Shown here piece after piece: positions 1,946 through 2,125 of a stretch of DNA of 64,000 nucleotides; position 1 is the stretch's first letter; the number at the start of each line of letters is the position of its first letter. The position numbers and the translations under genes were made by a program. The stretch comes from Chryseobacterium sp. (lineage in GTDB: Bacteria; Bacteroidota; Bacteroidia; Flavobacteriales; Weeksellaceae): contig NZ_JARBTK010000005.1 in the NCBI RefSeq assembly GCF_029240215.1, positions 19,813 through 83,812 of the forward strand. Reading direction: 5' to 3'. The notes beneath the pieces are model-generated. The model was given only the letters and a program-made list of their open reading frames with translations, was not told the origin of the DNA and did not search any database.

Positions 1946-2071
1946 ATGAAACAATTACATAACATATCTAATCAGTATTCAAAACGACACGGACAAGAGC
2001 CGATGGGACTTGCGTGTATTCTTGATAGTGAATTTGTGGATAAAAGGTGCTTATATAAATGGGTCAGCTAA
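1946..2071 (+). CDS. Leader peptide 2, 41 aa (MKQLHNISNQYSKRHGQEPMGLACILDSEFVDKRCLYKWVS)
   Basis: Hand translation; contains a strand (2045-2056) complementary to the 5' arm of the downstream terminator. Confidence 0.7.
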   Translation: MKQLHNISNQYSKRHGQEPMGLACILDSEFVDKRCLYKWVS

Positions 2072-2094
2072 TGTAGCGACACGTCAAAATATAT

Positions 2095-2125
2095 AAAGCG
2101 CCTCTCGAAAAGAGGCGCTTTTTTT
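2095..2125 (+). terminator. Attenuator terminator directly before the tRNA array
   Basis: Perfect 11-bp stem AAAGCGCCTCT/AGAGGCGCTTT with T tract. Confidence 0.85.

Follow-up and report, generated by a model that had tools for sequence, protein, structure and literature searches.

A candidate ribosome-operated attenuator with an amino-acid-diverse leader peptide ahead of a spare tRNA array in Chryseobacterium

In the trpL, hisL, ilvL and thrL attenuators, a short ORF and a terminator precede the first regulated gene. In the trpL/hisL type, an alternative hairpin that overlaps the ORF makes use of the 5′ arm of the terminator, and the position of the ribosome chooses between the two structures. 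To our knowledge, classical attenuators report on one amino acid each, or on about three at most. The ilvL and thrL leaders of enterobacteria are multivalent. The toiL-topAI attenuator of E. coli, also ribosome-mediated, senses translation inhibition. The Bacillus subtilis attenuators of bmrCD/bmrB and yxjB likewise depend on the ribosome and sense general translation inhibition (PMC4191407, PMC6851288). Leaders of the bmrCD/yxjB/toiL type are not enriched for any single amino acid; slowing of the ribosome leads to read-through into stress-countering genes. A further system concerns tRNA genes. In Anabaena sp. PCC 7120, the trn operon is not expressed unless translation is impaired and is co-regulated with rtcB; the repressor TrcR binds direct repeats over its promoter, and no leader peptide or terminator has been reported for it (PMC8421152, PMC10272220). 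A search of full-text literature returned no paper linking tRNA arrays with leader peptides, nor one describing a leader that contains all amino acids.

Here we analyze a 64,000-nucleotide stretch of a Chryseobacterium genome (the window) in which a short ORF, leader 2, lies with its own promoter and terminator directly ahead of a tRNA array. Leader 2 shares with the trpL, hisL, ilvL and thrL attenuators the short ORF and the terminator before the first gene to be regulated, and its predicted overlapping alternative hairpin would be as in the trpL/hisL type. It differs from the trpL/hisL type in that it has no run of regulatory codons, no region 1 was found in its folds, its putative targets are tRNAs rather than enzymes, and it falls outside every Rfam leader family. 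With the bmrCD/yxjB/toiL type it has in common the absence of single-amino-acid enrichment and the predicted read-through upon ribosome slowing. Those attenuators gate resistance or toxin genes by drug-induced arrest, whereas the putative target of leader 2 is a tRNA array. Unlike bmrCD-type leaders, leader 2 also appears to have an amino-acid content selected for completeness and for a match to the array. The Chryseobacterium array resembles the Anabaena L-array in being a long extra tRNA operon that duplicates the housekeeping set and is linked to RNA repair. The repair partners are rtcB in Anabaena and Rnl2, Ro60 and cREC in Chryseobacterium, and control is by a repressor in the former and would, in our model, be by attenuation in the latter. 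On balance, we consider that leader 2 is probably a ribosome-operated transcription attenuator that gates a diverged spare tRNA operon and senses many amino acids.

All promoters, ORFs, hairpins and tRNA genes described below lie on the + strand of the window. Promoter 2 (1847–1878) is of the Bacteroidota −33/−7 type, with a −33 element TTTG (1847–1850), a 20-nt spacer and a −7 box-like TTACTTTG (1871–1878), and is followed by an A-rich 5′ UTR. Its TTACTTTGCAACCGAAAATT is invariant in the 29 aligned congener loci found by BLAST, six weaker congener matches having been left out of this alignment; other loci also carry it but were selected on it. The 5′ end of the leader-2 transcript folds into a hairpin (1888–1910), the outer pair of which changes from A-U to G-C in the alignment. 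A scan of the + strand for perfect TAnnTTTG boxes finds no further one after promoter 2 until 8914, and no canonical promoter was found between leader 2 and the array or within the array. The array appears dependent on read-through.

The leader 2 ORF (1946–2071), defined by ORF calling and comparison of orthologues, has 41 codons and encodes the 41-aa peptide MKQLHNISNQYSKRHGQEPMGLACILDSEFVDKRCLYKWVS. As a first-pass annotation of this DNA had described, the peptide holds 19 of the 20 amino acids, threonine being absent, and uses 31 distinct codons. The coordinates reported there are all correct, including a first tRNA that begins 3 nt past the T tract (tRNA-His starts at 2128, the last T is 2125). 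The contrast drawn there with trp and his leaders, which are enriched for a single amino acid, is likewise borne out: there is no codon run, and the 19 amino acids occur one to four times each. The label "all-codon" is too broad, as 31 of 61 codons are used; what is kept is the broad set of amino acids. We observed no significant rare-codon bias (CAI at the 8th and 15th percentile). Neither leader peptide is matched in NCBIfam, and Pfam and Rfam are likewise without a match for the leader unit. A search of 5.8 billion proteins returned only 24 close copies of the leader peptide, annotated as hypothetical, and no distant relatives.

Two hairpins are predicted to compete for the same strand downstream of promoter 2. 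Intrinsic terminator 2 (2095–2125) consists of a stem (2095–2105/2111–2121), a loop (2106–2110) and a T tract that runs to 2125. Codons 34–38 of leader 2 contain a nearly invariant segment, AGGTGCTTATAT(A) (region 2, 2045–2057), the 5′ strand of the antiterminator. It pairs with region 3 (2090–2103), which overlaps the terminator 5′ arm. The pairing of the leader's 3′ codons with this arm, proposed in the initial annotation, is present in the sequence, with 13 pairs, a G-U and a bulged A at 2095. At −14.4 kcal/mol, this duplex is the best that the segment can form anywhere in the leader, and the terminator 5′ arm has no equally good partner in the rest of the leader either; only 1.7% of shuffled leaders match it. 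The complete antiterminator hairpin (2045–2103) reaches −18.8 kcal/mol compared with −17.5 kcal/mol for the terminator hairpin (2095–2121) plus U tract, and the 2:3 and 3:4 hairpins of the trp attenuator are similarly comparable in energy. Across orthologues the means are −19.1 kcal/mol for the antiterminator and −14.9 kcal/mol for the terminator. When leaders are folded up to, but excluding, the terminator 3′ arm, region 2 is the partner of the 5′ arm in the minimum-energy structure of all 126 unique orthologues and of all 70 loci ascertained by promoter. Leader folds contain no upstream segment (region 1) paired with region 2. Lacking an upstream partner for region 2, an untranslated leader should read through.

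Compensatory changes from G-C to A-U occur in the terminator 2 stem in 17 sequences, and the terminator column with this change stays paired with region 2, as U-G or U-A. The antiterminator helix is 93.7% paired in the alignment, a percentage reached in 52 of 500 shuffles of the control and therefore not significant. It shows only one compensatory change, A-U to C-G in locus L223. Since region 2 is almost invariant, the helix is not backed by covariation statistics. The antiterminator rests on complementarity, energy and conservation, and covariation support is weak.

The leader-2 unit is present in 35 of 36 genomes of the genus, and a pattern search for region 2 plus terminator recovers it in more than 118 species-level genomes. 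A promoter 20-mer used alone, a search that selects for neither ORF nor pairing, yielded 72 unique metagenome loci, and 70 of them have the unit. In total, about 200 loci from Chryseobacterium, Epilithonimonas and metagenomes carry it, with leader-2 ORFs of 35–48 codons. The ATG and region 2 are separated by one of seven distances, each a multiple of three, in 96 of 98 sequences, while lengths of the 5′ UTR have no such preference. In-frame indels between ATG and region 2, but not in the 5′ UTR, argue that the leader-2 frame is read. Whether it is TAA, an earlier TAG or a later TGA, the stop codon is without exception located between regions 2 and 3. Three relatives have a one-base insertion just 5′ of region 2 that alters the C-terminal peptide and leaves the bases of region 2 intact; as these frameshifted variants retain the bases and lose the peptide, the 3′ block (KRCLY) is conserved as RNA. 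More than 115 unique leader-2 peptides share the segments MKQLHNI, GQEP and KRCLY, and the middle of the peptide varies freely. The initial annotation had anticipated that relatives would conserve diversity and pairing rather than peptide sequence. The ORF, its frame, its diversity and the pairing are indeed kept, but the MKQLHNI and KRCLY parts of the peptide are conserved too.

A second cassette, leader 1 (1411–1624), lies about 500 nt upstream of leader 2 and also has a promoter, an ORF and a terminator. The −7 box of promoter 1 (1412–1419), TATCTTTG, is a perfect Bacteroidota TAnnTTTG and is conserved in the orthologue alignment. The leader 1 ORF (1433–1561) has 42 codons, as do 111 of 113 orthologues, and contains all 20 amino acids within its first 26 codons. 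Intrinsic terminator 1 (1590–1624) has a stem at 1590–1618 followed by a T tract. In the consensus fold of the truncated leader, GAGGCG (1523–1528), a candidate antiterminator strand, pairs with CGCCTC (1595–1600) of the terminator arm. Each of 131 loci has the cassette in the corresponding position. Its sequence bears no resemblance to leader 2, no gene follows it directly, and it may act in series with leader 2. Between the gene for a TPR-like membrane protein upstream and promoter 1 there is a long imperfect palindrome (GTCATTGCGAACCGAAGG...CTTCTCGCAATGAC, 1295–1390), which looks like a repeat element.

That both cassettes are complete from promoter to terminator, leader 1 without a gene directly behind it, raises the question of whether leader 2 is instead an independent small gene or RNA. 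It would then act as a 41-aa micropeptide or as an RNA of about 240 nt in trans, and the tRNAs would be expressed from constitutive terminator leakage without translational control. A few gene callers do list the ORF as a hypothetical protein, which would fit such a gene, and action in trans is known for attenuator RNAs and for leader peptides (PMC6614838, PMC7298713). This reading does not explain, however, why the 3′ end of the ORF mimics the terminator 3′ arm in every orthologue, why the stop always lies between the two strands, why the bases are kept in the frameshifted forms or why the array is promoterless. The lack of a match in Pfam, NCBIfam and Rfam also speaks against it, and we regard it as unlikely.

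We next consider amino-acid content. The probability of at least 19 amino acids in 41 codons is 0.037 for random genome codons, 0.018 for 41-aa stretches taken from real proteins and 0.020 for ORFs of 38–45 codons in the same genome; that of at least 31 codons is 0.029. Ninety ORFs of 30–60 codons in the genome have a terminator behind them, and eight of these hold at least 19 amino acids. The leader 2 of the window alone is thus only modestly unusual (top 2–4%), and the case rests on comparative data. The excess of diversity is strong only when the orthologues and the neighboring leader are included. Among 115 unique leader-2 peptides, 43 contain all 20 amino acids, 44 contain 19, and none has fewer than 17. 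Leader 1 orthologues hold 20 of 20 in 59 of 89 unique peptides, and for the leader 1 of the window the probability of all 20 within the first 26 codons is 6e-6. In 107 of 109 species, no amino acid is missing from the two leaders taken together. The null simulation suggested in the first-pass annotation therefore gives a divided answer: diversity exceeds the null at the level of the family, but that of the window's own leader does so only modestly. The attenuation interpretation made there gains support from the conserved ORF, from this family-level diversity and from the antiterminator pairing found in every orthologue.

The most divergent relative, a Flavobacteriales MAG (locus L142), retains this property in both leaders. 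Despite differences at 14 of 26 positions, its leader 1 fits all 20 amino acids into 26 codons (P = 6e-5 to 1.4e-4), and its leader 2 has the full set within 25 codons (P = 5e-6 to 1e-5). A whole-genome scan identified one other stretch of 26 residues after a Met that holds 20 amino acids, on contig 7; it lies inside a 190-aa protein and was judged a chance occurrence. An ORF on contig 12 with 32 codons and 19 amino acids near a terminator was considered as a third leader. It adjoins a tRNA on the opposite strand, has no gene behind it and was also judged to be chance. Compensation of amino-acid losses appeared to stand out by 5–8 SD in a simple column shuffle, but in a tree-aware simulation within the genus it was not above expectation (P = 0.07 for leader 1 and 0.29 for leader 2). 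Because the tree-aware simulation removed its significance, the column shuffle is not relied on.

The tRNA array (2128–4316) consists of 15 tRNA genes called by ARAGORN together with degenerate tRNA-like units, tRNA-His (2128) being the first. The array duplicates the housekeeping tRNAs in diverged form, its tRNAs being 54–77% identical to the housekeeping isoacceptors. It packs at least 15 tRNA genes into 2.2 kb, and for 13 of them a housekeeping counterpart exists elsewhere; in this assembly, which is 94% complete, no Pro(TGG) or Ser(GCT) was found outside the array. Order and content of the array differ between species, and tRNA-His is nearly always first. A palindromic insert of about 40 nt (GTGAATTC...GAATTCATGAACAATCC) interrupts the T-loop region of two tRNA-like genes of the array (2245–2285 and 3748–3790), one of which is a type II tRNA with anticodon GTA. 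The same insert recurs in the first tRNA of the L142 array. Directly behind the array, genes at 4463–14559 encode an RNase H-like protein (PF04308), two R2K ATP-grasp proteins, a cREC receiver, an Rnl2-type RNA ligase, a metallophosphoesterase, two RNase T-like exonucleases, an SPFH protein and a TROVE/Ro60 protein. Together they form an RNA-repair island.

Region 2 stays free only if the ribosome stalls about five or more codons upstream of it, so that the first ~30 codons of leader 2 are those that count. They hold 17 amino acids and cover all 13 amino acids of the ARAGORN-called array tRNAs (P = 0.003). Ile and Tyr, the would-be amino acids of the degenerate units, are also among them, and adding these gives P = 0.0015. 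In 57 species, 90% of array amino acids are covered by the first 30 codons of leader 2. In 79 complete arrays (loci L034–L151), ARAGORN found His, Glu, Pro, Leu, Gln, Cys, Phe, Arg, Tyr, Lys, Asn, Ile and Asp in most. Thr was called in 25 and Trp in 35, Met and Ser are also in a minority, and tRNA-Gly, tRNA-Ala and tRNA-Val were never called in these arrays. The amino acids most often missing from the 115 leader-2 peptides are T (39), A (29), W (23) and V (10), with any other missing at most once; these four correspond to tRNAs that are rare in or absent from the arrays. G, A, V, T and W make up 14.5% of the first 30 codons of leader 2 as opposed to 26.1% in the genome. Judged by these counts, leader 2 looks matched to the array, and leader 1 looks to cover everything. 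Species by species, the Trp codons of leader 2 do not track tRNA-Trp in the array, and the association for Thr is weak (21/24 vs 28/49) and confounded by relatedness.

These statistics bear on a second reading, namely that leader 2 is a drug- or nascent-peptide-specific arrest leader of the erm, vmlR or bmrCD type whose wide amino-acid content is incidental. Its conserved segments (MKQLHNI, GQEP, KRCLY) would then halt the ribosome solely in the presence of one particular ribosome-targeting antibiotic or metabolite. Conserved N- and C-terminal segments in the more than 115 unique peptides would be expected of such a leader. The combination of small ORF, antiterminator and terminator is that of antibiotic-responsive attenuators (PMC4191407, PMC6851288), and the tRNA operon of Anabaena responds to translation-targeting antibiotics (PMC8421152). 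Yet specific arrest would leave to chance the 20 amino acids in 26 codons of leader 1, the same trait in the two L142 leaders and the agreement of leader 2 with the array. The KRCLY block, moreover, is kept as RNA and not as peptide, the middle of the peptide is free to vary, and downstream there are tRNAs and RNA-repair genes instead of a resistance gene. We therefore think an arrest leader quite unlikely.

Between the two cassettes are two conserved spacer hairpins (1728–1779), at 1728–1750 and 1762–1779, the second of which shows compensatory changes. The first contains an invariant AGAGACAGTC, exactly complementary to the anticodon stem-loop of the array tRNA-Asp and to that of a neighboring Asp-like degenerate unit. 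The 10-nt complement has sites at 2667–2676 and 2737–2746, and its matches in the window number 3 against 0.06 expected. A structured spacer RNA with such complementarity to the tRNA-Asp anticodon arm, together with the invariance of region 2 and its surroundings at the level of bases, could point to factor-mediated antitermination. In that case a protein or an RNA (uncharged or damaged tRNA, or the spacer RNA) would choose the hairpin and translation would be irrelevant. A scan of the window at Rfam gathering thresholds, however, identified tRNAs only, with no T-box, leader or riboswitch family, and the best sub-threshold match in a permissive scan was Phe_leader, at 21–27 bits against a cut-off of 55 bits. 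The retention of frame through seven classes of indel argues that the ORF is read, and a factor would leave the amino-acid statistics unexplained. We find it very unlikely that translation plays no part.

If leader 2 is a ribosome-operated attenuator, as we favor, its parts would work as follows. Promoter 2 would start a transcript of about 240 nt that carries the 41-codon ORF. A hairpin of 2045–2057 and 2090–2103 would sequester the terminator 5′ arm, so that polymerase continues through tRNA-His and the array genes that follow it. A ribosome keeping pace with polymerase would reach the stop between the two strands and melt or block this hairpin. With the antiterminator removed, the terminator would form and transcription would end 2–3 nt before the first tRNA. 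Should the ribosome be delayed in the first ~30 codons, or never be loaded, the antiterminator would form and the array would be transcribed. From the arrangement of these elements we infer that the leader-2 ORF is translated, that the terminator functions and that the switch has this direction. The initial annotation held that a stall at almost any codon would allow read-through; this is consistent with the geometry for the first ~30 codons and their 17 amino acids, but not for the later ones.

The opposite direction, in which efficient translation gives read-through and stalling gives termination so that spare tRNAs are made only in healthy translation, is highly improbable: the direction is drawn from structure alone, and stalls in codons 31–41 would cover region 2 and favor termination, but the strand that competes with the terminator sits inside the 3′ end of the ORF, so that an arriving ribosome removes the antiterminator, and duplicate tRNAs made only amid plenty have no evident use next to RNA-repair genes. 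None of these alternatives explains the composition statistics together with the geometry.

As the first 30 codons of leader 2 call for 17 amino acids and leader 1 calls for all 20, the attenuator would report slow decoding of almost any codon. What is sensed would be slow decoding caused by tRNA cleavage, uncharged tRNA or elongation inhibitors, and not shortage of a single amino acid. Each amino acid occurs in leader 2 only a few times (one to four), and sensitivity to a single shortage may therefore be low. No convincing His, Leu or Ile leader attenuator was found elsewhere in the genome, leaving coupling in this organism without such an example.

More speculatively, it is possible that the two leaders in tandem act as a checkpoint at which the decoding of each amino acid is tested. 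Such an arrangement would amount to a sensor dedicated to tRNA damage that consists of no more than a "pangram" peptide and a pair of hairpins. Cleavage of tRNA by a nuclease of a competitor or of phage defence, or failure of charging, would cause ribosomes to lag and switch on the spare tRNAs and perhaps the repair island. We offer this only tentatively.

We know of no other attenuator that controls tRNA genes themselves, and leader 2 would be the first. The element is compact, about 240 nt, and could therefore be reused as a reporter of translation stress. Because the unit occurs across the whole genus, culturable strains included, experiments should be easy to set up. A leader that contains all amino acids would measure the speed of decoding in general. 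If true, the proposed attenuator would give a testable answer to how bacteria time the use of their puzzling extra tRNA arrays, and it would link tRNA supply with RNA-repair islands that are predicted to answer tRNA-cleaving toxins.
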